Both the position numbers and the translations under genes were made by a program. The notes beneath the pieces were generated by a model that did no database searches, had not been told where the DNA came from, and saw only the letters and a program-made list of their open reading frames with translations. Of a DNA stretch of 64,000 nucleotides, positions 34,650-47,759 are shown piece by piece (positions within the stretch are counted from its first letter, which is position 1; each line of letters begins with the position of its first letter). This DNA comes from Candidatus Aminicenantes bacterium (GTDB lineage: Bacteria; Acidobacteriota; Aminicenantia; Aminicenantales; CALLJL01), in contig JAOAFQ010000012.1 of NCBI GenBank assembly GCA_026416195.1, positions 13,955 to 77,954 on the forward strand, read 5' to 3'.

Positions 34650-36854
34650 TTAGAGCCGCCACCAGTAGGAAAATTTGACAAAAACTGAAGGTCCTGGTCT
34701 CTGAAAGATCCCCCTTTCATCTCTTCCTTGCTGTTTATCCACTCCAAAATAAAAAACTGTTCCTGGTCGATATTCGTAACTAAAAAGAAAGCTCACAAAG
34801 AACCGATCGTAATAGTCATTATATTCAGTAATAAGACGAAGGGAAACAGATTTTGAAAGCTGATAGTTAATCCTTTGGGAAATAATATTGATTTTATAAA
34901 CTCGTTCGCCTCCCCTTTCCCGATAAAATTCATTATTCTGAAGATTATAGAAAAAGCTTAAATTGCTTTTAGGTCTTATGCTAGTTCGCAAGGACCAGGA
35001 AGTTCTAAAACCTAGATAAGGTTTGCTAGAATAATAAATAGCTTCGCCTATTCCATAAGAAATATTCGCGCTTAGCCAGGAAAAAGGCTCGGTATTAAAA
35101 TGACAATCAAATTCACTTTTATAAAAATCAATATTTCTGTATCTTTCTAGCCCTGTAGAGAAAGAAAACCAAAGAGAAGATTGACGCCATCCAGATAAGA
35201 AAAGGGAAATATCAACTTCATTATCAGTCAGAGTATTATTAAAATCATAAATTCGCCTATATTCAATGGAAGGACGGATAGAAATTATATATTCTTTTTC
35301 GGGCAAAAAGACATAACCAAAACGAGTATTAAAGGATTTGATGTCTAACCGGCGAAAGAACCCAGAAGCAGCTTCAAAATCAGGCGGTAAGGAATTATAG
35401 TCTAGAGAAAAATTTACATGGCGCGTTTGTCGATTAAAATTTAAGGCCAAGGCCGGAACAATTCGAGTTACTTGCCCCTCCACTTTGGTTTTAGCTCCAA
35501 GGAGCTGAAAGGAAAGGCGATTATTGCCCATAATCTTGAAATGGCCATCAAGGCCAGCTACTCGATTATAATCAGAAAAAATTTGACTAAAGGAAGGACC
35601 GATTTCTTTATCACAAAAGAGAAAACCAAGATAGGACTCACTATATATGTCCTGCCGAAGCCGGAAAACATTGATCCAAGCTCGAGCCGAAGTCCCTTCT
35701 ATGCTTTCAATTTTTTTATTAGGAATCTTAATGGCTACAGGATTGGAATCAAGCACACTTAGGATTCCTAAGGCTGTACCCTTGGTTTTGCCAGAAAGTT
35801 TCAAGCCCCAAATTGGATCGATGATCCTGCGGGGATAAAGTACCTCTAAAAAAGTGTCAAAATAGTCTCGGCCTTCGATGAAAAAAGGTCTTTTTTCAGG
35901 ATAATAAAGAGCATAGCGCTGATTGACATCGATTTGGGGCATATCTGCTTCGATTTGGCTGTAATCTGGATTAAGAGTAAAATCAGCCGTTAAATCAGAA
36001 GACAGTCCCCATTTAAAATTGACTCCAGGCTGTGGCGAAAATTTCTGAACATCGGTTCTCAGAGCAGTTATAACGGGCATAACTTCAATATTTTTTCCAG
36101 TACTAATGGATGAGGGAAACTCAAGTTGGCCGGCCTGAATCAAGAAACCGTTAATATTCCGAGATTGGGGGGGCCAGTATAATTCTTCATTTTTTCTCCT
36201 TATAGACCGCTGAATAATTAAACCCCATTTTTGATTGCCGGTATTAGGAAACCGAAGAGTCTTAAATGGAATGGCCATCTCGACCGTATAGCCTTGATCA
36301 TCAATTTTGGCTTCGGAAAGAAAATAGCCATCCCAGCTTCGATCAAATCTTTCAAAGCCCATCATTCCACCACCACCGCCCCCACCTCGGCCTCGGCCTC
36401 GGCGGCCGCCTTCGACAAAAATGCCATCATTCTGAATTCCACATGGATTCACTTGAAAAACAAAAGCTCTCTTTTTATCGTTAAAAGTATCTAAATAAAC
36501 CGTGATCCCATCATCTCTCATCACTCTATCCCGCTGAGTTAAACTGGCCCTTATAGCTTGCGGATCAGAATCAAAACAGCGAAAGGCAATATAAAGATAA
36601 TTCTGATCATAACCGATAAAGACTCGAGTCAATTCTGAAGGTTTAGCTCCCTCCTGGGGTTCATATTGGGTAAATTGCTCGATAACGGTCGCTTTTTCCC
36701 ACAGAGGATTTTCCAGAATCCCATCAATTTTAGGTGGGTTGGAAAACTCAACAGGCTGGATAATATAATTTTCCCGACCAGCCGCTTCAAAAGTAACTGG
36801 AAAAATTAGAAAAATTAAACCGCCCAACCAACCAACCAATTTTAATCGCTTCAT
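34650..36854 (-). CDS. CBM9-like/DUF5916-type outer-membrane protein
   Basis: Signal peptide; PKIDGILENPLW, YLYIAFRCFD, GYTVEMAIPFKTLRF, TLNPDYSQIEAD, LYYPEKRPFFIEG; beta-barrel-like C-terminus. Confidence 0.8.
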   Translation of the reverse strand: MKRLKLVGWLGGLIFLIFPVTFEAAGRENYIIQPVEFSNPPKIDGILENPLWEKATVIEQFTQYEPQEGAKPSELTRVFIGYDQNYLYIAFRCFDSDPQAIRASLTQRDRVMRDDGITVYLDTFNDKKRAFVFQVNPCGIQNDGIFVEGGRRGRGRGGGGGGGMMGFERFDRSWDGYFLSEAKIDDQGYTVEMAIPFKTLRFPNTGNQKWGLIIQRSIRRKNEELYWPPQSRNINGFLIQAGQLEFPSSISTGKNIEVMPVITALRTDVQKFSPQPGVNFKWGLSSDLTADFTLNPDYSQIEADMPQIDVNQRYALYYPEKRPFFIEGRDYFDTFLEVLYPRRIIDPIWGLKLSGKTKGTALGILSVLDSNPVAIKIPNKKIESIEGTSARAWINVFRLRQDIYSESYLGFLFCDKEIGPSFSQIFSDYNRVAGLDGHFKIMGNNRLSFQLLGAKTKVEGQVTRIVPALALNFNRQTRHVNFSLDYNSLPPDFEAASGFFRRLDIKSFNTRFGYVFLPEKEYIISIRPSIEYRRIYDFNNTLTDNEVDISLFLSGWRQSSLWFSFSTGLERYRNIDFYKSEFDCHFNTEPFSWLSANISYGIGEAIYYSSKPYLGFRTSWSLRTSIRPKSNLSFFYNLQNNEFYRERGGERVYKINIISQRINYQLSKSVSLRLITEYNDYYDRFFVSFLFSYEYRPGTVFYFGVDKQQGRDERGIFQRPGPSVFVKFSYWWRL

Positions 36855-36987: not shown

Positions 36988-38559
36988 TTATTTCCGCTCT
37001 AGTAGATTAGCCAATTCAATATTCCTAGTCTTCAGGGTTGTGCCCAGGACCCGGTCTAGATTAGCTAAAGAAAGGCTATAATCAATGATCGCTTTAAGTT
37101 CAGCTGTCCGCTGATTAGCTAGATCTCGCTGATAGGTTAAAACCATAAAGTTAGTGCTTAGACCAAGACGCAGCTTCTCCTGTTCTGCCTCAAGTTTTTT
37201 CTCGGCCAACTCTCGAGCTAAACGATAGGCCTGCACTCGTTGGAAGTTAGATTGGACAGCTCGAACCGCATTTTTTACTTCCAAATAAACTTGCTCCTCC
37301 TGATTTTTTAGTCTCAATAAGGTCTGTTGTAAATTTAGCTTGGCCTGGGCATAATTGGCTCTGGAAAAGGCATTACTCAAAGGAATATCAAGAGTAAGAC
37401 TTAAAGACCAGTTTCGGTATTTAAAGTTAAAGGAATCCTTTAAAGCTCCTGAAGCTCCGCCAGGAATAGTGCCTAAGATAACCCCGGTAAAAGGATTGTC
37501 ATTTAAATATAAGATTCTGTCTCCTGAAAGACCTGGACTCCAGTAAGAAGCCGAAAAAGAGAGATTAGGCAGAAGCTGATTGCGGGCTACACTTAAGTTA
37601 AATTCCTGATTCTCTACTTGAAGTCGAGTTGAAAACAAGTCTGGTCGATTTTGTAGAGCTATTTGGAGACATTCCTCAAGATCAACTTTCTGTTCAACAA
37701 ATCGAGGCTTATCAACCGGCTTTATTTCTGAGATGCTTTCATCCCGGGTCAAATTAAGGACCCGGCGAAGCTGATCTTCGGCGTTTTTTACCTGGACCTC
37801 AGCGGCAATAATATCAGCTTCACGGCTGGCGACTTCAGCTTCGGCGCTGAGAACTTCCAGGGAAGCCATCGTGCCAATCTCAACCGCTTTTTTATTTTTT
37901 TCTAAAAGCTCCCGAGCTAATTGAAGAGCCTGACGCCTTACTTCCAAATTTTCTATAGCATAAACAAGATTCCAGTAAGCCTCCTCAACCGAGTAAATTG
38001 TATCCATGATTGCTTTTTTCAAATCGTATTCAGAGATTTCGAGATTAGTCTGAGCAATAATTATTTCTCTTCGGCTCATCTTAAAGCCAAAGTCTCGAAG
38101 TAAAGGCTGGCTGAAGGTGAAACGTAAAGTGCTTGAATAACGAGGATTAATTGTTTGAAAGCGAGCCGTGGTATCAGTCCGATCCCAGTTTAAAGAAATG
38201 CCTAAGCTACCTCCAGTTGGAATCTGCTGACTTAATTGAGTTTGATATCCTTCCGAATCAGTCATCGTTTTGTCGGTAGCTTCTAGCCACGAATAAGATG
38301 CTTGGACTGTGCTTCGCCGGTTAAAATTAAAACTTAAAGTCGGGAAAAATTTTTCTTTGGCTCTGGCCACCGCTAAATCAGAAATTTCAGGATTGAGAAT
38401 CTGAATTTGAAGTTGTAGATTATTTTTTAGAGCCCGGGTGATCGCCTCTTCCAAGGTTAAATTTAATATTTTTGAGCTGTCAGTTTGAGCCCCCATTGTT
38501 AAAGGAAAAAGCAAGAAAATAAGAACTCCTGACATTAGGCCAATCCATGCTTTTTTCAT
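36988..38559 (-). CDS. TolC family outer-membrane efflux protein
   Basis: LTLEEAITRALKNN, VEEAYWNL, NQLLPNLSFSA, AEQEKLRLG; AGGAGG SD. Confidence 0.93.
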   Translation of the reverse strand: MKKAWIGLMSGVLIFLLFPLTMGAQTDSSKILNLTLEEAITRALKNNLQLQIQILNPEISDLAVARAKEKFFPTLSFNFNRRSTVQASYSWLEATDKTMTDSEGYQTQLSQQIPTGGSLGISLNWDRTDTTARFQTINPRYSSTLRFTFSQPLLRDFGFKMSRREIIIAQTNLEISEYDLKKAIMDTIYSVEEAYWNLVYAIENLEVRRQALQLARELLEKNKKAVEIGTMASLEVLSAEAEVASREADIIAAEVQVKNAEDQLRRVLNLTRDESISEIKPVDKPRFVEQKVDLEECLQIALQNRPDLFSTRLQVENQEFNLSVARNQLLPNLSFSASYWSPGLSGDRILYLNDNPFTGVILGTIPGGASGALKDSFNFKYRNWSLSLTLDIPLSNAFSRANYAQAKLNLQQTLLRLKNQEEQVYLEVKNAVRAVQSNFQRVQAYRLARELAEKKLEAEQEKLRLGLSTNFMVLTYQRDLANQRTAELKAIIDYSLSLANLDRVLGTTLKTRNIELANLLERK

Positions 38560-38613
38560 GGCACCTCCTCAGGTTTGTCTCTTAAATTAAAACGTGAGGT
38601 CATGAACTACTTA

Positions 38614-39831
38614 TTATTCATAGCGAAGAGCCTCAATAGGATCGAGTTTTGAGGCTTTTCGAGCTGGATAAAAGCCGAAAAAGATACCTACAGCGGCAGC
38701 AAAAAAGAAAGCTAAGAAAATAGCATCCGGCGAAACGACCGTTCGCCAGCCGGCGAATCGGCTGATTAACCTTGAGGCAATAAAGCCGACTATAATTCCA
38801 ATTAAACCGCCCATCAGGCACAGGGTTACGGCCTCAGCTAAAAACTGAAGCAAAATATCCCTTTCTCGGGCACCGACTGACATCCTTATTCCTATTTCCC
38901 TAATTCTCTCTGTAACCGAAACCAGCATGATGTTCATAATGCCAATCCCGCCAACTAGAAGGGAGATGCCGGCGATACTCCCTAGAAGAATCGTTAAAAT
39001 TTTCATCGTTTCGGTGGCTGACTCCAGCATTTCTGTCATATTGCGGACAGTAAAGTCATCTTCAGCGCCTGGGGCAATTTTATGGCGGATCCGAAGAAGC
39101 TCCTCAATCTGAGCCTTAGCTTCAGGAGTGCGATTAGCCGAAACAGCTTTAACATCAATCGAATTAATATAATCTTGCCTAACTAGTCTCATTAAAGCTG
39201 TAGTATAAGGCACAATAATCATATCATCTCGGCTCATCCAGCCACCAGTTTCGCCTTTGGAGCGCATGACTCCTAGGACAGTAAAGGGAATCTTTTTAAT
39301 TCGGATTACCTTGCCAATAGGATCTTCATCTTCAAAAAGATTCTTTTTGACCTCTGAACCAAGAATACAAACTTTAGCGCCAGAACGGACATGGCTATCA
39401 TCAAAAAAGGTTCCTAATTCGACATCCCAGTTTCTGATTAAAGGAAATTTTTCATTGGCCCCGGTAATACTCGTATTCCAATTTTTATTGGCATAAACAA
39501 CCTGGGCTCTGGTGTTGACAATTGGCGAAGCATAAAGAACAGCATCACAATTTTGTTCGATGGCTAAAGCATCCTCTACCTTTAAGGATTGCCAACCACC
39601 AAAACCTGTATGTCGCCCTCCAACTGATCGGCTTCCAGGGCTAACAAAAAGAAGATTGGTCCCCATAGCTTGAAACCTTTCTTCGACGGCCGTTTTTGCC
39701 CCTTCGCCAATACTTACCATCGCGATGACTGCCCCAACGCCGATGATGATGCCAAGCGTAGTTAAAAAAGAGCGTAATTTATTTCGAGCAAGAGCTCTAA
39801 CCGAAACTCTTAAAATTCGGAGATAATTCAT
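38614..39831 (-). CDS. MacB-like ABC permease
   Basis: RSFLTTLGIIIGV, GGIGIMNIMLVSVTERIREIGIR, YPARKASKLDPIEALRYE. Confidence 0.95.
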   Translation of the reverse strand: MNYLRILRVSVRALARNKLRSFLTTLGIIIGVGAVIAMVSIGEGAKTAVEERFQAMGTNLLFVSPGSRSVGGRHTGFGGWQSLKVEDALAIEQNCDAVLYASPIVNTRAQVVYANKNWNTSITGANEKFPLIRNWDVELGTFFDDSHVRSGAKVCILGSEVKKNLFEDEDPIGKVIRIKKIPFTVLGVMRSKGETGGWMSRDDMIIVPYTTALMRLVRQDYINSIDVKAVSANRTPEAKAQIEELLRIRHKIAPGAEDDFTVRNMTEMLESATETMKILTILLGSIAGISLLVGGIGIMNIMLVSVTERIREIGIRMSVGARERDILLQFLAEAVTLCLMGGLIGIIVGFIASRLISRFAGWRTVVSPDAIFLAFFFAAAVGIFFGFYPARKASKLDPIEALRYE

Positions 39832-39843
39832 AGCCCCTCCTCA

Positions 39844-40554
39844 TCAAATTTCTTCTCGAATGATTCGGCCGTCTCGGACAAAGATTCGCCTTTTAGTTAT
39901 CGCAGCCACATCAGGGTCATGGGTAACAATGCAGATTGTAATGCCTTGTTCCTCATTCAATCTTTTAAAAATAGCCATGATCTCTTCGCCCGTCTTAGTG
40001 TCGAGATTACCAGTTGGCTCATCTGCTAAAATAATAGATGGGTCATTAACCAAAGCCCGAGCAATAGCCACTCGCTGCATTTCCCCACCTGAAAGTTGGT
40101 TTGTCTGATGATGCTCTCTGCCTTTTAGCCCAACCGAAGCCAAAGCTTTCAAAGCCTTTTCTCTCGCTATTTTATGAGGGACATTAGCATAAAGAAGTGG
40201 TAATTCCACATTTTCTAGAGCCGTGGTGCGAGGCAAAAGATTAAAATTTTGGAAGACAAAGCCAATTTTTTTGTTCCTGATTCGGGCCAATTTATTTCGA
40301 TCGAGCCTCGAAACTTCCTCTCCATCAAGAAAATATTGGCCCGAAGTAGGCTTATCGAGACAGCCGATAATATTCATCAAGGTGGATTTACCTGAGCCTG
40401 AGGGCCCCATAATTGAAATAAACTCCCCTGGTCTGACCACTAAAGAGACGCCCCGAAGGGCATGAACTTCGGTTTCTCCGACTTTATAAATTTTAACCAC
40501 CTTCTCTAAATGAATCAGATTCTCATTTTGACTCTTCATTTTTTCATCTCTCAA
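39844..40554 (-). CDS. MacB/LolD-like ABC ATP-binding protein
   Basis: [42 protein letters not shown]. Confidence 0.95.
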
Positions 40555-40567
40555 CCATTATTTAAAG

Positions 40568-41962
40568 TTAACGCCGAATAAACATCATTGGCCCAGGCCC
40601 TGGTCCAGGCCCAAAAGATTGGCTTCTGGATTGAGAAGTCGATGTTGGATAAGCATAGCCGACGATAATTTTTTGGCCTTCCTTCAAATCGCCCCATCTA
40701 ATCTCAGTAAAAGAGTTATCGGAAATTCCTGGACGAACAAAAATGGGCCAAAGCTTACCCTTTTCATCCAGAGTCCAAACTCGGCTCATTTGTTGGCGGC
40801 CACCTGCAGGCCTTCGTTCCCCTGAAGGGAATTGACCTTCTTGAGCCATCGGGCCACCCTGGCTAAATCCTCTTTTTTCTCCAGGAGCAAAAGGAAATCG
40901 AGGCTGTTCCTGCCCTTCACCTGCTTTTTGACGCAAAGCCTGGAATTGAGCCATCATCTTCTCTCTGGCTTCCTTCAAGATTCTCTCCATCTCTTCTTGA
41001 CTAATTTCAGGCGAAAAGCGCAGGGCCGCATTGGGCACTCGAAGGACTCCTTTGGCTTCTCCGACGGTAATGGTAACATTAGCCGTCATCCCGGGGAGAA
41101 GCTTTAAATCGGGATTATCGACATCAACGATTGTGGTATAGGTAACTACATTTTGGACAGTTTCGGGTGAATATCGGACCTGGCGAACAACCCCATAAAA
41201 GGTTTCTCCAGGATAAGAATCAACCGTAAACCGAACTCGTTGGCCCTCTTTGACTTTGCCAATATCAGCCTCATCCACACTACATTGGACCTGCATTTTA
41301 CTCAAATCAGTGGCTATTTTGAACAGAACCGGTGCCTGTAAGCTGGCAGCCACAGTTTGACCAACATTTACGTTTCTGGTGATAACCACGCCATCCACCG
41401 GCGAACGAATTATGGTGTAAGCCAGATTAACTCTGCTCGCTTCCAGCTGGCTTTTAGCTTGTTCTAAACGAGCTTCAGCGGCTAGAACCTCGCTTTTTGC
41501 ATTTAAATAGTTAGCTTCTGCGGCTTCTTTTTCTTCATAAGAAATGAGATTCTTTTCAAAAAGACTAAGGGCTCGCTTATACTTCTTCTCAGCAATTTCC
41601 AATGAAACCTTCGCCCTATCTAAAGAAGCCACCGCACTTCGATAATTGGCTTCATCCTGCTGCAAGCGGGCAATGAAGGAATCTTGTTCTAGCTCGGCTA
41701 CAATCTGGCCAGCTTTGACCGGGGAATTAAAATCAACATAAATTTTGGCCACCCGACCTGAAACTTGACTACCCACATCAACCACCGTTACTGGATTAAC
41801 CGTTCCTGAGGTTACAACCGTGGCCTCAATGTCTCCCCGGCTTACCGTTTCGAAGCGATATTTGGGCGTATTATTCTTGCCCTTCTTAATCATTCCATAG
41901 CCAACAATGGCTCCAACAATTACAACTAAGACGATCCCTAAAATAAGCCATTTTTTCTTCAT
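40568..41962 (-). CDS. MacA-like periplasmic adaptor subunit
   Basis: VDVGSQVSGRV, IRSPVDGVV, GQTVAASLQAP, VDEADIGKV, LLPGMTA. Confidence 0.94.
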   Translation of the reverse strand: MKKKWLILGIVLVVIVGAIVGYGMIKKGKNNTPKYRFETVSRGDIEATVVTSGTVNPVTVVDVGSQVSGRVAKIYVDFNSPVKAGQIVAELEQDSFIARLQQDEANYRSAVASLDRAKVSLEIAEKKYKRALSLFEKNLISYEEKEAAEANYLNAKSEVLAAEARLEQAKSQLEASRVNLAYTIIRSPVDGVVITRNVNVGQTVAASLQAPVLFKIATDLSKMQVQCSVDEADIGKVKEGQRVRFTVDSYPGETFYGVVRQVRYSPETVQNVVTYTTIVDVDNPDLKLLPGMTANVTITVGEAKGVLRVPNAALRFSPEISQEEMERILKEAREKMMAQFQALRQKAGEGQEQPRFPFAPGEKRGFSQGGPMAQEGQFPSGERRPAGGRQQMSRVWTLDEKGKLWPIFVRPGISDNSFTEIRWGDLKEGQKIIVGYAYPTSTSQSRSQSFGPGPGPGPMMFIRR

Positions 41963-41987
41963 AGATCATTGCCTCCCTTCTTCATTT

Positions 41988-42410
41988 TTATCTGGGGTAA
42001 TCCCTTTTTCTTTCAGGATATTTTTCCCTTTCCGGTGCCCCCTCTCTTTCTCTTTTCTTTCGGTGCTCTTGAATCATAGCTTGAAGCTTTTCTCTTTGGG
42101 TTGGAGTCAAAAGGTTATCTATTTCTTTCTTAATTTCCTCCCGAATTGCCCCAAGATCATTGTGATAACGAACTCTCAATTCCCTCATTTTTTCATCGGT
42201 ACGGCGAAAAATTTCTTTAATGGCCTTTTGTTGGTCGGCCGAAAGATCAAGTTCTTTGGCCCATTTTTCAAAAGAAGGAGGGGGCCCTTCTCTTCGAGGT
42301 TGAATGCCTCGATGAACAAAAAGCCTCTCACTTAAAAACCCGATCAACCCACCAGCAACAAAGACTAAAATAAAAGAAAGGATCAACCAGAATCTGAAGC
42401 GGCCACTCAT
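41988..42410 (-). CDS. Spy/CpxP-like (LTxxQ) periplasmic helical protein
   Basis: N-terminal TM; ELDLSADQQKAI and LLTPTQREKL repeats. Confidence 0.78.
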   Translation of the reverse strand: MSGRFRFWLILSFILVFVAGGLIGFLSERLFVHRGIQPRREGPPPSFEKWAKELDLSADQQKAIKEIFRRTDEKMRELRVRYHNDLGAIREEIKKEIDNLLTPTQREKLQAMIQEHRKKREREGAPEREKYPERKRDYPR

Positions 42411-42892
42411 GGTAGGTACCTCCTGGATGTCGCCTCCAGAGATGAAAACATCAATCTCAAATTCCTTTGCTCGGGCTGAGGTTCATTCAATATCTGTTGA
42501 ACCTCAGGGAAGGGAGCTTCTTGAAAAATTAAGGCTTCAGTCTGGCTAAAATTAACCGATTTTCCTGGCGGCCAAAAAATCAATAGACCAGTTAAAACAA
42601 TAAGACCAATCAAAGCTATGGTGACTGCTCTGACCAGAATGGGTTGCCAGATTACTTCAGGTTCTGGTCGACCCAAAGCAGCAATTTTTTTATCTAACCT
42701 TTCCCAGAAATAGGGAAGAGGCTCGGCCGTCTGGTCAAGTTTGATCCAAGAAAGAAGTCTTTGATAATCAACCTCTAAACGAGCACATCGGGAGCAATGG
42801 CGAAGGTGCGCCTCTAGCTCACTCCTTTCTTCAGCTGTAATTCGGCCGTCGAAAGACCGAAGTAGCCGTCTTTCAGCCTGACGGCAGTTCAT
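42407..42892 (-). CDS. ZAS (zf-HC2) anti-sigma factor
   Basis: MNCRQ...EAHLRHCSRC (HxxxCxxC), single TM, overlaps the sigma stop. Confidence 0.88.
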   Translation of the reverse strand: MNCRQAERRLLRSFDGRITAEERSELEAHLRHCSRCARLEVDYQRLLSWIKLDQTAEPLPYFWERLDKKIAALGRPEPEVIWQPILVRAVTIALIGLIVLTGLLIFWPPGKSVNFSQTEALIFQEAPFPEVQQILNEPQPEQRNLRLMFSSLEATSRRYLP

Positions 42893-43461
42893 AATACCCT
42901 CCCTTCTTGCCTTAAAAAAGGCTCCATTTTCTCCCGTAAAAGCTTCCGGGCTCGGTGGAGGCGGGAATCCACCGTGCCGATGGAAGTCCCCAAAATGGAA
43001 GCAATTTCCTCATAAGGTAAACCCTCAACGTCTCTTAAAGTTAGAACAATTCTATATTTTTCAGGCAAGGTGGCCATCACCTTGGCCAAAAGTTGTCTCC
43101 TTTTATCCATTATTTCCTCTTCTTCTTGAGTCATTTCCCTTTCATCGGGCATTTGACTTATCTTAGTTTCTTCAAGTCTCTCTTCTCGCTGGATTCTCCG
43201 TTTCATTTTCCTCAAATAATCCTTAATGTGATTGATGGCCAGCCGGTAAAGCCAAGTAGAAAACTCAGCTTTTCCTCGAAAGCCGGGCAGAGCCAAGTAG
43301 GCTTTAAGAAAAACCTCCTGGGCCAAATCATCAGCCGCAGCCCGGTCTCGAGTAAAACCAAATGCCAAATGAAAAACCCGATTTTGATAACGGCTAACCA
43401 ATTCACTAAAAGCTTCAGCTTCGCCAGCGCAGGCCCGGCTAACCAACTCTCTCTCTTCCAT
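42889..43461 (-). CDS. ECF sigma-70 factor
   Basis: DLAQEVFLKAY, FRGKAEFSTWLYRLAIN, EGLPYEEIASIL, GTVDSRLHRAR. Confidence 0.95.
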   Translation of the reverse strand: MEERELVSRACAGEAEAFSELVSRYQNRVFHLAFGFTRDRAAADDLAQEVFLKAYLALPGFRGKAEFSTWLYRLAINHIKDYLRKMKRRIQREERLEETKISQMPDEREMTQEEEEIMDKRRQLLAKVMATLPEKYRIVLTLRDVEGLPYEEIASILGTSIGTVDSRLHRARKLLREKMEPFLRQEGRVL

Positions 43462-43494
43462 TCAGCACACACCGTTGCTTCCTCCATCTAAAAT

Positions 43495-43522
43495 TTAGAC
43501 GGAGGAAGGGTCAAAATCTTCC
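43495..43522 (-). promoter_or_regulatory. Putative ECF promoter copy 1 (GGAAG-N16-CGTCTAA)
   Basis: Minus strand GGAAG 43522-43518, 16-nt spacer, CGTC 43501-43498; 37 nt upstream of the sigma ATG. Confidence 0.7.
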
Positions 43523-43580
43523 CTCGGTAAAATTTTCTCTTCTATTTTAACATTAATGCAGAAAAAGCGAATTTAGTTAC

Positions 43581-43618
43581 AAAGAAAAGGAGGGGAAGGT
43601 CATCTAACCTTCCCCTCC
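43581..43618 (-). terminator. Intrinsic terminator
   Basis: 12-bp perfect stem GGAGGGGAAGGT/ACCTTCCCCTCC (43589-43618), 6-nt loop, then TTTTCTTT on the minus strand; lies between the 124-aa gene and the sigma promoter. Confidence 0.88.
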
Positions 43619-43661
43619 AAGAAACGGTGGGGAAAGAAAGGAGGACGGAGTCAGGGTAAAT

Positions 43662-44036
43662 TTAGGACTTCCGGGTGGCCGACCATTGAATTGAACCAAA
43701 CTGGCCCATTTCAGCTTCGCCAGCCATGTGATCTTTATCCTTAATTTCTCCCTTATAGGTGGTGGTGAATTCGCCTCGTGGAGTTTGCCGAGTAATGGTC
43801 CATTCCACTTTGTTCCCTTCGACTTTACCCTCTCCAGTTATGTCACCTCTTTGAGTCTTCATTGTGACCGTAATCTTAGTTCCTTCCTGTTTGATTTCAA
43901 GCTCGGATTTCATTTCTCCCCTTGGCGATTGGGTCGTCATTTCCCAAGTTCCACTAAGGTTATACTGCTGAGCCAAAAGCAGAGTTAATGGAACAATCAA
44001 GCAAATGCTCACAACCAGCCCTAAAACTTTTCTCAT
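43662..44036 (-). CDS. Small secreted beta-strand-rich hypothetical protein (124 aa)
   Basis: Signal peptide MRKVLGLVVSICLIVPLTLLLAQ; LSGTWEMTT start of a lipocalin-like fold; AAGGAGGT SD; own terminator. Confidence 0.8.
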   Translation of the reverse strand: MRKVLGLVVSICLIVPLTLLLAQQYNLSGTWEMTTQSPRGEMKSELEIKQEGTKITVTMKTQRGDITGEGKVEGNKVEWTITRQTPRGEFTTTYKGEIKDKDHMAGEAEMGQFGSIQWSATRKS

Positions 44037-44129
44037 TGTAGCACCTCCTTAAGCCAGGTTAAGAAATTTAATTTGGCCCAGATAACTGAGCTTCGGCCCT
44101 TCCTTATCTGGGCGATTTAATCCATTTAT

Positions 44130-44157
44130 TATGACGAAGAATTAATTTTTTTCTTCC
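44130..44157 (-). promoter_or_regulatory. Putative ECF promoter copy 2 (GGAAG-N16-CGTCAT)
   Basis: Minus strand GGAAG 44157-44153, 16-nt spacer, CGTC 44136-44133; ~97 nt upstream of ATG 44036. Confidence 0.68.
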
Positions 44158-44206
44158 TTATTAATTTTTTCAAGTTTTCCTCTTAACCAAATTAAAGTGA
44201 AGTAAC

Positions 44207-44806
44207 TTAACTTTTTTTGATTTTTAAACCTTCCAGGTGACGAAGATAATCTTCAGCTGTATCCACATCCATAACAACAGCAGGTTCGTTTACCGAAATT
44301 TCCAGAATATCTTCAGGATGCAGGTGAATTAAATAACGCAGGCCAAGATCAGGTGGACATGATCTTATCTCTTGACGATATTTCAAATCAATAAGGACTG
44401 GATGGCCTCTCTTTCCTTGAAAAATAGGAAGAACCAATCCCTTGCCTTTAAGGCGGTAACCAACAATGAGTAAATCAATAATTGAAGCTGAAATGCCTGG
44501 CTGATCGCCTAAAACCAGCACTATGGCTTCAGTCTCTTCTGGCATTTTTTCAAGGCCGATGATGACTGAAGAAAGCATCCCCTTTGCTGGTTCTGGGTTA
44601 ATTATCACTTCCAAACCTAAAGTTTGGGCTATGGGAGGAATAAAATTATCTTCAGGCCGAATGACGACATAGCTTCGTTTCAACTTGCTTTTTTTAACTG
44701 TGGCCAACACTGTTTCAATAATGCTTTTCCCCTCATAGGGGAGAAGCAACTTTGGCTGGCCCATCCGACGTGATTCGCCGGCAGCTAAAACCAAACCACA
44801 AATCAT
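44207..44806 (-). CDS. MocA/MobA-like molybdenum cofactor nucleotidyltransferase
   Basis: LVLAAGESRRMGQPKLLL, GMLSS, LGDQP, RGHPV, DVDTAEDY; ATGA overlap with xdhC gives start 44806. Confidence 0.9.
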   Translation of the reverse strand: MICGLVLAAGESRRMGQPKLLLPYEGKSIIETVLATVKKSKLKRSYVVIRPEDNFIPPIAQTLGLEVIINPEPAKGMLSSVIIGLEKMPEETEAIVLVLGDQPGISASIIDLLIVGYRLKGKGLVLPIFQGKRGHPVLIDLKYRQEIRSCPPDLGLRYLIHLHPEDILEISVNEPAVVMDVDTAEDYLRHLEGLKIKKS

Positions 44807-45915
44807 CCGTCTTCTTTTCTTGATTGACGGCGGCAAGCCACGACCTCAGCCATTATACTTAAGGCAATTTCCTCAACTGTCTTAGCTCCAAGATCAAGAC
44901 CAATTGGTGAATGAAGTTTAGCCCAATCTTCTTCTTTGGCCCAGCCTTTTTTGAGGAATTCTTCTCTCATTAAAGCTACTTTCCGCCGGCTTCCAATCAT
45001 CCCAATATAGGCAAATTCTTTTTTTAGACCAACCCGCAAAACTTCGGCATCGTAACGATGACCTCGGGTAACAATAATCAAATAAGAGGTTTTGTCCAGA
45101 GGAAATTTTTCGAGGCTCGAAGCCATATCCGCCGCAATAAAATTTACTTTCGATCTAAGTTCTATTGGCAATTCAAGGTCCGCTCGATCATCAAAAAGAA
45201 AAACCTCAAAGCCTAGAAAAAGACCTAGCCTGGCAACAGCCTGACCAACATGACCGGCCCCGAAAACAAGGAGGCGAGGCAGTGGATAAATAGGTTCGAT
45301 AAACAAAATTTCTTCTCGGCCTTCGGCCGTTCTTCCTTTGATTAATCGCGGTTTTTCATCCTTAAAGAAATCGGCCATTTCTTCCTTGGAAATAAAAGAC
45401 CAAACCTCTTTAGATTGAACTTTATTTTTGATCAAATTTGCTAAAACTTCGCCTTCAGGTAAAAAGAAGTAATCAAGACTAATCTGGTCTGAGGTAGTTT
45501 TTTCAATTAAAATTGATAATAAACCTCGACGCCTCTGTTTTAAACTTCCCCCTACCTCCTTAAAGACCTGATGGTTTTTTTGAGGATTGCCATCAACCAA
45601 AACCAAAGCTTGCCCACCACAAACCGATCCTTCCTCAGCCAAGTCAGCCGCGAAATTCCAGTTAATCAGTTCTGCTCTTTTCAATTTTAGCCACTTTTGG
45701 GCTATCTCAATTATGGCTGCTTCAAAAAAACCACCACCAATAGTTCCAGCAGCTAAACCCTCTAAGGTAATTAAAGCTTTAGCCCCAGCCACTTGGGGCG
45801 TAGAGCCTCTAGTTTCAAGGAGAATGATTAAGGCTACGTTTTTTCCTTGATCAAGAAACTCGGCCAACTGAGTAAAGAGGGAAGGTAATTTCGTTGAAGC
45901 TAAATAAATATCCAT
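44803..45915 (-). CDS. xdhC: XdhC/CoxI family molybdoenzyme maturation factor
   Basis: GSTPQVAGAK, GTIGGG, CGG, FGAGHVG, TRGHRYD, YIGMIGSRRK, PIGLDLGAKTVEEIALSI. Confidence 0.9.
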   Translation of the reverse strand: MDIYLASTKLPSLFTQLAEFLDQGKNVALIILLETRGSTPQVAGAKALITLEGLAAGTIGGGFFEAAIIEIAQKWLKLKRAELINWNFAADLAEEGSVCGGQALVLVDGNPQKNHQVFKEVGGSLKQRRRGLLSILIEKTTSDQISLDYFFLPEGEVLANLIKNKVQSKEVWSFISKEEMADFFKDEKPRLIKGRTAEGREEILFIEPIYPLPRLLVFGAGHVGQAVARLGLFLGFEVFLFDDRADLELPIELRSKVNFIAADMASSLEKFPLDKTSYLIIVTRGHRYDAEVLRVGLKKEFAYIGMIGSRRKVALMREEFLKKGWAKEEDWAKLHSPIGLDLGAKTVEEIALSIMAEVVACRRQSRKEDG

Positions 45916-46110
45916 TTTTATTGCTTTTTATTATACAAAAGGAAGGGGATAAACTAAATGGCAACTTCTTCTCCCGCTTTATCTTGCCTTAAATTTGCCC
46001 TGACAATCAATTCCTTCTAGGGAAAATAAAAAGACCTCAAAATTTAATTGAAAAGGAAAATAAATTTAAGTAAATTGATAAGAAAAATATGAATTAACGA
46101 AGGAGAAAGG

Positions 46111-47337
46111 ATGGAAGAAAGAATTAATCGACGTGATTTCTTTCGATTTGGCCTGAGTGGAACCTTGGCTTTTATTACCACTAAGATCGGATTAAAAGGT
46201 AACAGCCGATCGCCCAGTCTATCTCCTTTAGTTCAGACAAAAGAAAAGCCAAAATTAATTTACCGAACTTTGGGCCAAACAGGTCTTAAAGTAACCGCAG
46301 TGAGTATGGGCGTGATGAATGCTGACAATCCGGACTTAGTCAAAGCGGCTTTGGATGCTGGTATAATTCTCCTTGATACGGCCCATGGGTATCAGCGAGG
46401 CCGGAATGAAGAAATGATTGGCAGCGTGATAAAGGGCAGACCTCGTGACTCTTTTCTTGTGGCCACCAAGATTAACCCACCCACCAGAGACAGGAAGACT
46501 GGAGATTTCCTTCCTGAAACGAGTTCTCAACAGTTTCTGGAGATGCTCGATTTAAGTCTTCAGCGCCTTGGCCTGGATTATGTCGACATTCTCAGCATCC
46601 ATAACACAACTAAGCGAGAGCATGTTTTAAATGAAGTCATTCTTGAAGCTTTGCTTAAGGCAAAAAAAGAAGGAAAAACAAGATTTATTAGTGCTTCCAC
46701 TCATTCCGGCCAAGTTGACGTGATTAAAGGAATGCTCGAAGCCAAGGTTTATGATGTGGTCATTGCTAGTTTTAACTTCCGTCAGCAGAATCGAGAAGAG
46801 GTCCGTCAGGCTTTAAGAGAAGCGGCGGCCGCTGGTCTGGGTGTAATTGCCATGAAAACTCAAGCTGGCGTTTATTGGGATAAAGAAAAAACTCAAAAAA
46901 TCAATATGAAAGCTGCTTTGAAATGGGTGCTTAATGAGCCAGCAGTGCATACTGCCATCCCTGGATTTACCACCTTTGACCAACTGGAAGAAGATCTTTC
47001 GGTTATGGCTGATCTAACCCTGACTGAGGAAGAGCTTAAAGATCTTCGCTTAGGGGAAATTCACAGTGATGGAATGTATTGCCAAGGATGTCTTTCTTGT
47101 CTTGAGACTTGTCCCCAGGAGATACCCATTCCGGACCTTATGCGAGCTTATATGTACGCTTTTGGCTATAATAATTCAAATTTAGCTTTAGATTTATTAA
47201 CTTCTCTTAACTTACCATCCAGACTCTGCCATAATTGCTTAAGTTGCCGCGTTAAATGTCAACTTAATCTTAAGGTTAAGGAGCGCCTCGTCGATTTAGC
47301 TTCGCTTCTACCAGTTTTTACGGTGGCGGCAGGTTAA
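46111..47337 (+). CDS. Tat-exported aldo/keto reductase with C-terminal 2x[4Fe-4S] domain
   Basis: NRRDFFRFG twin-arginine signal; YRTLGQTG, LDTAHGY, VATKI; CQGCLSCLETCP and CHNCLSCRVKC. Confidence 0.88.
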   Translation: MEERINRRDFFRFGLSGTLAFITTKIGLKGNSRSPSLSPLVQTKEKPKLIYRTLGQTGLKVTAVSMGVMNADNPDLVKAALDAGIILLDTAHGYQRGRNEEMIGSVIKGRPRDSFLVATKINPPTRDRKTGDFLPETSSQQFLEMLDLSLQRLGLDYVDILSIHNTTKREHVLNEVILEALLKAKKEGKTRFISASTHSGQVDVIKGMLEAKVYDVVIASFNFRQQNREEVRQALREAAAAGLGVIAMKTQAGVYWDKEKTQKINMKAALKWVLNEPAVHTAIPGFTTFDQLEEDLSVMADLTLTEEELKDLRLGEIHSDGMYCQGCLSCLETCPQEIPIPDLMRAYMYAFGYNNSNLALDLLTSLNLPSRLCHNCLSCRVKCQLNLKVKERLVDLASLLPVFTVAAG

Positions 47338-47352
47338 AATTTAAGCCACTTC

Positions 47353-47380
47353 TTGATTTTTAAATAATTTAGGTTATAAT
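47353..47380 (+). promoter_or_regulatory. Possible sigma70 promoter upstream of small ORF
   Basis: TTGATT-N16-TATAAT. Confidence 0.45.
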
Positions 47381-47433
47381 TAAAGTGTCTTAAATCTTTT
47401 CAAATCATAAAAATCCCTTAAAATTCTTCAAAA

Positions 47434-47460
47434 GGAAGTCTTTCACCTCTTTTTCGTCAA
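47434..47460 (+). promoter_or_regulatory. Putative ECF promoter copy 3 (GGAAG-N16-CGTCAA)
   Basis: GGAAG 47434-47438, 16-nt spacer, CGTC 47455-47458; 51 nt upstream of ATG 47509. Confidence 0.68.
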
Positions 47461-47508
47461 AAGATTAGAGACAGGAATGACATCTTTAATCTAGAGGAGG
47501 TGAGGAAG

Positions 47509-47697
47509 ATGAGATTAAGAACAAAAATAGCCATCATAATGATTGCCTTGGTTCTTTCTTTAGTTGGCTTCAATTTGATAGTTACCCCTTCAGCCTTAGA
47601 ATTGGCTAAAATAGGTAAGCAAGCCGGAGCTGAAATCATCGCCAATTACCTGATGAAAGTAGAAGCGACATCTAAAACCCCAGCGATTAAAGGGTAA
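47509..47697 (+). CDS. Small hypothetical exported or membrane-anchored protein (62 aa)
   Basis: AGGAGGTG SD 6-7 nt before ATG 47509; basic N-terminus plus hydrophobic stretch (MRLRTKIAIIMIALVLSLVGFNLIV); followed by a terminator. Confidence 0.75.
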   Translation: MRLRTKIAIIMIALVLSLVGFNLIVTPSALELAKIGKQAGAEIIANYLMKVEATSKTPAIKG

Positions 47698-47707
47698 GGT
47701 GAATCAG

Positions 47708-47759
47708 AAAAAAAAGTTAGGGCTGCCCAAAAAACCTAGGGGCAGCCCCTTCTTTGTTG
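47708..47759. terminator. Probable bidirectional intrinsic terminator
   Basis: 9-bp GC stem GGGCTGCCC/GGGCAGCCC (47720-47748), 11-nt loop, A-run before and T-rich tract after; between convergent genes. Confidence 0.7.

Follow-up and report, generated by a model that had tools for sequence, protein, structure and literature searches.

How would promoters of the extracytoplasmic function (ECF) type be recognised when their -35 element carries AAG in place of AAC, and which sigma factor would read them? Among the routes of bacterial signal transduction, ECF sigma factors are the third major one; they also supply orthogonal parts for synthetic circuits, and their promoters are generally recognised by the AAC in the -35. 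The question is raised by a 64,000-nucleotide stretch of DNA (hereafter the window; contig C92, positions 13955-77954) from a 2.88-Mb metagenome-assembled genome, in 235 contigs, of a Candidatus Aminicenantes bacterium. In this window the sequence GGAAG-N16-CGTC stands upstream of the gene of an RpoE-like ECF sigma factor and of two genes for small proteins. We consider it quite probable that the window holds the master locus of an envelope-directed ECF regulon conserved in the order Aminicenantales, with a sigma factor that would read GGAAGA-N15/16-CGTCTAA. The sites and genes on which the argument turns are the following.

43498-43522, minus strand: P1, predicted autoregulatory ECF promoter of the sigma operon (exact match; 36 bits with a position weight matrix, PWM)
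44133-44157, minus strand: P2, predicted ECF promoter of the gene for a 124-aa protein, GGAAGA...CGTCATA (exact match)
47434-47458, plus strand: P3, ECF-type promoter of the gene for a 62-aa protein (exact match; its assignment to the window sigma factor is doubtful)
42889-43461, minus strand: RpoE-like ECF sigma factor, 190 aa, with Pfam Sigma70_r2 and r4_2; ATG at 43461
43662-44036, minus strand: p124, secreted protein of 124 aa with a signal-peptide-like N-terminus; ATG at 44036
47509-47697, plus strand: p62, protein of 62 aa with an N-terminal hydrophobic helix; ATG at 47509, terminator at 47738-47750

A pattern scan returned exactly three matches in the window, and all of them are, as a first-pass annotation of this DNA had claimed, intergenic, on the sense strand and upstream of gene starts, ending 37, 97 and 51 nt 5' of the starts of the sigma, p124 and p62 genes, respectively. 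The clustering of the three sites is real. The same annotation had considered it improbable by chance. Dinucleotide-preserving shuffles of the window contain a mean of 0.32 matches and only one shuffle in 100 attains three; yet the bare nine-base motif occurs 15 times in the whole genome against ~10.5 expected, i.e., with no enrichment, even if three of only 5-6 intergenic matches genome-wide lie inside this 4-kb stretch. The case draws its strength from comparative data and not from a single-window statistic. The genome-wide count and the one shuffle in 100 that reproduces the three matches are what would be offered for the alternative that a short motif has clustered by chance within AT-rich intergenic DNA.

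The comparative data contradict this alternative for P1 and P2. Eighty loci encoding relatives of the sigma factor were collected, the first 42 being Aminicenantes orthologues and the other 38 an outgroup. GGAAG-N16/17-CGTC is found 58-64 nt 5' of the sigma ATG in 40 of the 42 orthologous loci, the exceptions being L042, which reads GGAAT, and L035, which has no motif; the conservation upstream of orthologous sigma genes that the first-pass annotation had named as one condition of its proposal is thus present. In P1 the -35 GGAAG occupies 43522-43518 and the -10 CGTC 43501-43498, followed by TAA, and transcription is predicted to start near 43490; a bipartite promoter 5' of the sigma factor's own gene, the usual sign of ECF autoregulation, is therefore present in silico. 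Among 24 assessable p124 homologues, 15 carry an exact GGAAG-N16/17-CGTC 40-117 nt upstream, and several others carry GGAAG...(G/A)GTCTAA. In a profile of 50 distinct sites GGAAG is followed by A in 95% and CGTC by TAA in 93-97%, neither of which was part of the search pattern; the consensus is (G/T)GGAAGAWWT...CGTCTAA(A/T). The conserved AAC expected of an ECF -35 is absent: the sigma, p124 and other regulon promoters have AAG.

The extended motif GGAAGA-N15/16-CGTCTAA, with 14 fixed bases, was searched together with its backward version as a control. There are 122 matches in 41 Aminicenantales genomes, every one of which is positive, and five for the control. No enrichment was seen in 150 genomes of other Acidobacteriota (16 matches vs ~47 for the control), and the motif is absent from 11 genomes of other orders of the same class. 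A chance cluster would account neither for the position kept in nearly all orthologues, nor for this excess over the control, nor for the coherent gene families found downstream, and we regard it as highly improbable. P1 and P2 are, as judged by comparison across the order, real and conserved ECF promoters that belong to one regulon. The proposals of an autoregulated ECF sigma operon with a non-canonical GGAAG -35, to which the match at residue 171 described below also contributes, and of the 124-aa secreted protein as a member of its regulon are both supported. In two related genomes (L107 and L108; G036:C8:87250-87278 and G031:C9:36079-36107) a second strict motif lies within the sigma coding region, 154 nt 5' of the anti-sigma start; it may be a promoter that uncouples expression of the anti-sigma factor and the pump encoded downstream from that of the sigma factor.

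What, then, would allow a sigma factor to use G at the fifth base of the -35? In the structure of region 4 of E. coli sigmaE with -35 DNA, the G that pairs with the C of GGAAC (-31' G) is contacted by Arg171 through two hydrogen bonds; across ECF sigma factors Arg or Lys at position 171 correlates with C in the -35, and SigR and SigH, which have Met there, use a -35 with T or without C (PMC1540707). The alignment of the window sigma factor to the sigmaE structure 1OR7 is gapless through region 4.2 and places Asp165 (codon 42967-42969), in the helix GTVDSRLHRAR, at the position of Arg171. S172 and R176 are conserved, and position 175 is His, where Phe or His is accepted (PMC1540707). The Asp of GTVDSR recurs across the 42 Aminicenantes orthologues, with Glu in L042, the locus whose -35 reads GGAAT, whereas all 38 outgroup sigma factors have Arg or Lys. 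Of 41 genomes of the order, 40 contain a single match to a back-translated pattern of the Asp helix, and the one without a match is 83% complete; none of 150 other Acidobacteriota genomes has a match, so that the boundary of the helix coincides with that of motif enrichment. In the genome studied here, one of ~8 ECF-like sigma factors has Asp at this position.

A scan for the Asp helix in 185,579 species genomes revealed a second Asp-type ECF clade in Zixibacteria, Ignavibacteriales, Calditrichota and other bacteria of the Fibrobacterota-Chlorobiota-Bacteroidota (FCB) group. In 24 of 26 of these loci GGAAG(A/T)-N15/16-(G/T/A)GTA stands at a fixed upstream position, and GGAAC in none; taken together, Asp-type sigma factors have GGAAG in 64 of 68 loci. 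An upstream ECF promoter could be identified for 25 of 37 members of the Arg/Lys-type outgroup, and 25 of 25 read GGAAC, with a -10 of CGTC (Bacteroidota/Ignavibacteriota) or GGGTA (Eisenbacteria). Since GGAAG accompanies Asp and GGAAC accompanies Arg or Lys across differing -10 elements, the fifth base of the -35 follows residue 171 independently of the -10. The FCB motif G-GAA-GA...GTA is invariant whichever codon gives the first G, and also in GC-rich sequence, which means that the constraint is on the DNA and not on a protein. In L199-L271 (e.g., L211, L224, L242 and L266) GGAAGA-N15-GTA lies ~91 nt 5' of the conserved sigma AFG motif, within an apparent N-terminal extension (xEEx6V); because the invariant codon choice points to a promoter, the annotated starts of the FCB Asp-type sigma factors are probably too far upstream. 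A maximum-likelihood tree sets the FCB Asp clade (97/98) apart from a clade (96/95) that unites the Aminicenantes Asp-type with all Arg/Lys-type sigma factors. No published GGAAG ECF promoter was found in a literature search.

The regulon had been described as local, a description that did not survive the search of the order. In all, 117 distinct sites were retrieved, nearly all of them intergenic with a signal-peptide-like open reading frame start within 250 nt, and the genes downstream were grouped by clustering and Pfam. The families named are these:

about 35 sites: the sigma factor itself
15 sites: p124
9 sites: TolC-like OEP
7 sites: secreted O-methyltransferase (PF01596)
7 sites: Sortilin/BNR
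7 sites: M28-like peptidases
4 sites: NodT-like OEP
4 sites: sulfatase
3 sites: M16 peptidase
3 sites: CBM9 and DUF5916
2 sites: HlyD

Additional intergenic sites of the genome studied here fall in families that recur across the order:

C195:40887-40911, minus strand: 5' of a TolC paralogue 56% identical to the TolC of the window
C198:23537-23561, plus strand: 5' of an O-methyltransferase
C157:2791-2816, plus strand: 5' of a CBM9/DUF5916 paralogue of the 734-aa gene of the window
C94:19168-19192, minus strand: 5' of another CBM9/DUF5916 paralogue of that gene

In this genome as in 40 relatives the motif also stands 5' of envelope genes that are not linked to the sigma locus, and the predicted regulon is therefore genome-wide and not local.

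Does P3 belong to the same regulon? The 62-aa gene had been counted as a member, and here the comparison points elsewhere. A whole-genome search recovers p62 homologues from 29 of the 41 Aminicenantales genomes, mostly at a distance of 1-9 kb from the sigma locus. Their promoters have a -35 of GGAAC or GAAAC in 10 of 11 relatives, all three genomes of the same genus among them, in the pattern GGAAC(C/T)TTTT...CGT(C/A/T)TA, with (C/T)TTTT and not AWWW flanking the -35 (compare GGAACTTTTTCATTATCATTTTCGTC in the same-genus genome G001 with GGAAGTCTTTCACCTCTTTTTCGTC at P3). P3 itself has GGAAGT and CGTCAAA where the regulon consensus has GGAAGA and CGTCTAA. A Lys-type ECF sigma factor of the same genome, encoded at C22:392-904 with the helix GTVKSRINRGK, has a similar, canonical motif, GGAACTTT-N17-CGTTTATAA, 43 nt 5' of its own start, and is a candidate regulator of the p62 gene family. 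P3 is by these comparisons a genuine ECF-type promoter that probably belongs to another sigma factor and matches GGAAG through one substitution. We therefore lean towards an account of the cluster as two promoters of the regulon and one C-to-G look-alike under a different, canonical Arg/Lys-type ECF sigma factor such as that on C22. It has against it that the base at P3 is G, which an Arg/Lys-type sigma factor would be expected to disfavour and an Asp-type one to favour, that the linkage of p62 to the Asp-type sigma locus extends over many genera, and that P3 is among only about six intergenic PWM matches of the genome. A sigma70-like promoter, TTGATT-16-TATAAT (10/12), lies 5' of P3 at 47353-47380 on the plus strand, and p62 may have two promoters.

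Unlike the other promoters of the regulon, P1 overlaps a predicted hairpin that joins it to the Shine-Dalgarno (SD) sequence of the sigma gene. Two features of the region between p124 and the sigma gene are relevant.

43472-43510, minus strand: hairpin over P1 and the sigma SD, minimum free energy (MFE) -22.7 kcal/mol
43589-43618, minus strand: intrinsic terminator after p124, with a 13-bp stem and a T-run

The 5' arm (CTTCCTCCGTCTAAA, 43507-43493) is made of the promoter spacer and the CGT of the -10, and the 3' arm (TTTAGATGGAGGAAG, 43492-43478) includes the sigma SD, GGAGG (43485-43481). Complementarity of spacer and -10 to the SD region is found in every orthologue (MFE -11 to -24 kcal/mol). 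The stem extensions vary by lineage yet pair: GGCC with GGCC, GGGACC with GGTTCC, TGTGACC with GGTTGCA, TTCTTCTT with AAGAAGAA and CGTTTCC with GGAGACG. No structure emerged from RNAalifold when 32 upstream regions were aligned with MAFFT, which misaligned the 3' arm, and a gapless anchored register failed on bulges; covariation was assessed by a permutation test on duplex energies. Duplexes of a promoter's own arms have a mean of -16.6 kcal/mol and cross-pairings of -13.2 kcal/mol (z = -8.9, reached in 0 of 20,000 permutations, values that relatedness of the sequences inflates). In sigma-gene promoters each base of CCTC directly before CGTC reaches 61-81%, whereas 86 other regulon promoters show the background level, and exact CCTCC occurs in 13 of 31 of the former and in one of 86 of the latter; being specific to sigma-gene promoters, this sequence would serve the hairpin and not recognition by the sigma factor. 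No Rfam family matches the hairpin. It was also considered as a protein operator and as a terminator, and both were rejected, the former because the arms covary instead of staying conserved and the latter because no T-run follows.

A transcript from P1 would start in the loop, ~7 nt after CGTC, and would lack the 5' arm, so that the hairpin could form only in RNAs started upstream. Read-through transcripts, for example from P2, would carry a masked sigma SD and translation of the sigma factor from them would be blocked, whereas P1 transcripts would leave the SD free, and sigma synthesis would thus depend on P1 itself. Such promoter-dependent masking of the SD is in our view the most economical reading of the hairpin. 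One may ask instead whether what is conserved 5' of the sigma gene acts above all as RNA, in a leader that is transcribed from a promoter further upstream and sequesters the SD as a riboregulator or thermosensor, its likeness to an ECF promoter being secondary. The hairpin does covary and does mask the SD in all orthologues, and some GC-rich relatives have a GGAAC-N17-CGTT-like element ~45 nt further upstream. A leader would leave unaccounted for that GGAAGA lies outside the hairpin, invariant and at fixed spacing, that the same bipartite motif precedes more than 80 other genes with neither hairpin nor CCTC, and that the residue-base association couples the -35 to the sigma factor; we judge this alternative improbable. 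The upstream element itself, GGAACCGG-N-CCGG(C/A)GTT, is seen ~45 nt 5' of the P1 -35 in GC-rich loci without p124 5' of the sigma gene (L004, L006, L009, L011-L017, L020 and L024). This element may represent a small hairpin or else a second ECF-type promoter, and in the latter case the sigma transcripts made from it would contain the hairpin over P1.

Several observations weigh against the reading developed so far, that of a sigma factor which reads AAG through Asp and whose autoregulatory promoter doubles as part of a regulatory hairpin. The tree is compatible with a single origin of Asp (55/41), and the association of Asp with G may go back to no more than one or two evolutionary events. 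In this single genome a reversed-sequence null cannot be told apart by PWM score from P2, P3 and the unlinked sites (14-18 bits), the scan giving 10 matches of at least 14 bits and the null five; support for the regulon comes from gene families that recur from genus to genus. For the hairpin, sense and antisense folding energies are equal, so that the folding strand is not proven, and the terminator between p124 and P1 in the window is a strong one, which bears on the source of hairpin-containing transcripts. In L001, L005 and L019 no terminator was found between p124 and P1. We give slightly less than even weight to the joint proposal that a single change of Arg171 to Asp re-specifies AAC to AAG in two deep clades and that the promoter contains an embedded anti-SD sequence.

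The operon that P1 would control has the gene content given to it in the first-pass annotation, with which Pfam agrees. Downstream of the sigma gene come six further genes of the operon and, after tolC, one that may be co-transcribed:

42407-42892, minus strand: anti-sigma factor with an N-terminal zf-HC2 (H-x3-C-x2-C), one transmembrane helix and a short periplasmic tail (PF13490, 31 bits, cut-off 22.2)
41988-42410, minus strand: LTXXQ/Metal_resist-like membrane-anchored or periplasmic protein resembling Spy/CpxP/ZraP (PF13801 and PF07813 slightly below cut-offs)
40568-41962, minus strand: MacA-like adaptor, HlyD_D23 (PF16576, 88 bits)
39844-40554, minus strand: ABC ATPase, ABC_tran (PF00005, 123 bits)
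38614-39831, minus strand: MacB-type permease, MacB_PCD and FtsX (PF12704, 185 bits; PF02687, 79 bits)
36988-38559, minus strand: TolC-like outer-membrane protein, OEP (PF02321, 188 bits)
34650-36854, minus strand: CBM9 and DUF5916 protein of 734 aa, downstream of tolC (Pfam)

The order of the first seven genes, from sigma factor to TolC, is common to all 42 Aminicenantes loci. The sigma factor has regions 2 and 4 only (PF04542, 72.6 bits; PF08281, 76.3 bits); it scores 127.5 bits against TIGR02937 (cut-off 42.9), which assigns it to the ECF (group 4) family, and 151.5 bits against the RpoE equivalog TIGR02939, under the cut-off of 236. The start of the anti-sigma gene overlaps the sigma stop codon, the protein has the zinc-finger motif AHLRHCSRC of the ZAS (zf-HC2) type, and it is kept at +1 in all orthologous loci. 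The Spy-like gene is kept at +2 across these loci, its product scoring 27.2 bits with PF13801 (cut-off 29.2), 22.4 with PF07813 (cut-off 24.3) and 18 with the Spy equivalog (cut-off 174). MacB core and FtsX permease, ABC ATPase, HlyD adaptor and OEP channel together make up a pump of the MacAB-TolC type. The 133-nt gap between tolC and the CBM9/DUF5916 gene contains no motif; the latter gene is also found 3' of tolC in ~12 relatives and may be co-transcribed with the sigma operon. Its family has at least six paralogues in the genome (in the window and on contigs C94, C157, C18, C234, C97 and C204), one of which is 3' of tolC in the sigma operon and two of which bear the regulon motif. Genes resembling xdhC, mobA and aldo-keto-reductase genes (44207-45915 on the minus strand and 46111-47337 on the plus strand) are syntenic with the sigma locus in several genera, and no regulon motif was found 5' of these neighbours.

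The first-pass annotation had also taken the two small proteins for effectors or cargo of the pump, for which no support was found with either p124 or p62. A homologue of p124 stands directly 5' of the sigma gene and on the same strand in ~26 of 42 loci. Its AlphaFold model, built on a 22-sequence alignment, is an eight-stranded up-and-down beta-barrel (predicted local distance difference test score 87), for which Foldseek returns designed beta-barrels, the Cap15 barrel and lipid binders of the FABP/CRABP type at E ~1e-4 and a TM-score of ~0.6. As modelled, p124 looks like a periplasmic, calycin-like barrel that binds small ligands. It is possible that p124 and p62 act in ligand capture for the pump or in modulation of the periplasmic tail of the anti-sigma factor. 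A hairpin, CCCAGATAA...TTATCTGGG, lies at 44072-44107 on the minus strand, in the predicted 5' untranslated region of p124 between P2 and the SD, and is similar in L001 and L002; since no T-run follows, a role as leader or stabiliser element is more probable than one as the mobA terminator.

How much of this is familiar? A literature search found no work on Aminicenantes sigma factors, and the best matches of the sigma factor among solved structures are 1OR7, 6IN7 and 8Z6G (E ~1e-34), with SigW (5WUQ) matching as well. Like E. coli sigmaE/RseA and P. aeruginosa AlgU/MucA, the system combines a sigma2 and sigma4 protein with an adjacent membrane anti-sigma factor in an operon that is autoregulated (here by prediction), has an envelope-directed regulon and a bipartite promoter with ~16-nt spacing, and keeps S172, the Phe/His position 175 and R176. 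It departs from sigmaE and AlgU in having GGAAG and not GGAAC in the -35, Asp for Arg171 and CGTCTAA instead of TCTGA in the -10, and from sigmaE/RseA in that its anti-sigma factor is of the zf-HC2 and not the RseA-like type. In the latter respect it resembles B. subtilis SigW/RsiW, which has a zf-HC2 membrane anti-sigma factor, a -10 of the CGTA/CGTC type, 16-nt spacing and an envelope/antimicrobial-stress regulon including transporters; unlike here, the SigW -35 is TGAAAC, while the present host is diderm and its operon includes TolC. For group ECF281 the re-classification of ECF sigma factors describes a zinc-finger anti-sigma factor at +1 and, at +2, a heavy-metal-resistance protein (PF13801) (Casas-Pastor et al. 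2021, PMC7826278). The window has zf-HC2 at +1, and its protein at +2 is PF13801/LTXXQ-like with a score slightly under the PF13801 cut-off (27.2 vs 29.2 bits); the accessible part of the description mentions neither a MacAB-TolC context nor a GGAAG motif. The pump genes follow MacAB-TolC in uniting HlyD adaptor, MacB_PCD and FtsX permease, ABC ATPase and OEP channel in one operon, and differ from it in that ATPase and permease are separate genes and that the pump is under predicted direct ECF control. S. coelicolor SigR and M. tuberculosis SigH provide a precedent in which a non-basic residue 171 accompanies loss of the C, Met going with GGAAT (PMC1540707). Here, unlike in SigR and SigH, the residue is acidic and the base is G, which suggests positive read-out of the template-strand C and not a mere loss of contact. 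In architecture and logic the locus appears to be a classical autoregulated envelope-stress ECF system, from which it would depart in the AAG -35 with Asp171, in direct control of MacAB-TolC, in the conserved p124 partner and in the promoter/anti-SD hairpin.

In the mechanism that we propose, the RpoE-like sigma factor would be held by its membrane zf-HC2 anti-sigma factor and would respond to a presumed inducing signal by initiating at these sites. Through P1 it would drive its own seven-gene operon of sigma factor, anti-sigma factor, Spy/ZraP-like protein, MacA, ABC ATPase, MacB and TolC, through P2 the periplasmic beta-barrel p124, and through similar promoters elsewhere the TolC paralogue, the secreted O-methyltransferase and the CBM9/DUF5916 proteins. 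The G at the fifth position of the -35 would be read, or at least tolerated, because the equivalent of Arg171 is Asp.

If this is true, a switch from Arg171 to Asp has been kept in Aminicenantales and in Zixibacteria/Ignavibacteriales/Calditrichota with two different -10 elements, and defines an AAG promoter class orthogonal to the other ECF sigma factors of the same cell. The spacer and -10 of the autoregulatory promoter would then double as the 5' arm of a hairpin, such that only transcripts started by the sigma factor are translatable; if it works as proposed, this hairpin would be a compact way of tying sigma synthesis to the promoter from which the mRNA originates. The use of AAG by a whole order of uncultured bacteria and by a second clade in the FCB group, together with a residue change at a position structurally known to read the base, would amount to a natural experiment on how sigma4 recognition is coded and would offer a ready-made orthogonal pair of sigma factor and promoter. 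For the Aminicenantes, these results would provide a first regulon sketch, in which a MacAB-TolC pump, outer-membrane proteins, secreted peptidases and a small periplasmic barrel are brought together in one envelope response.

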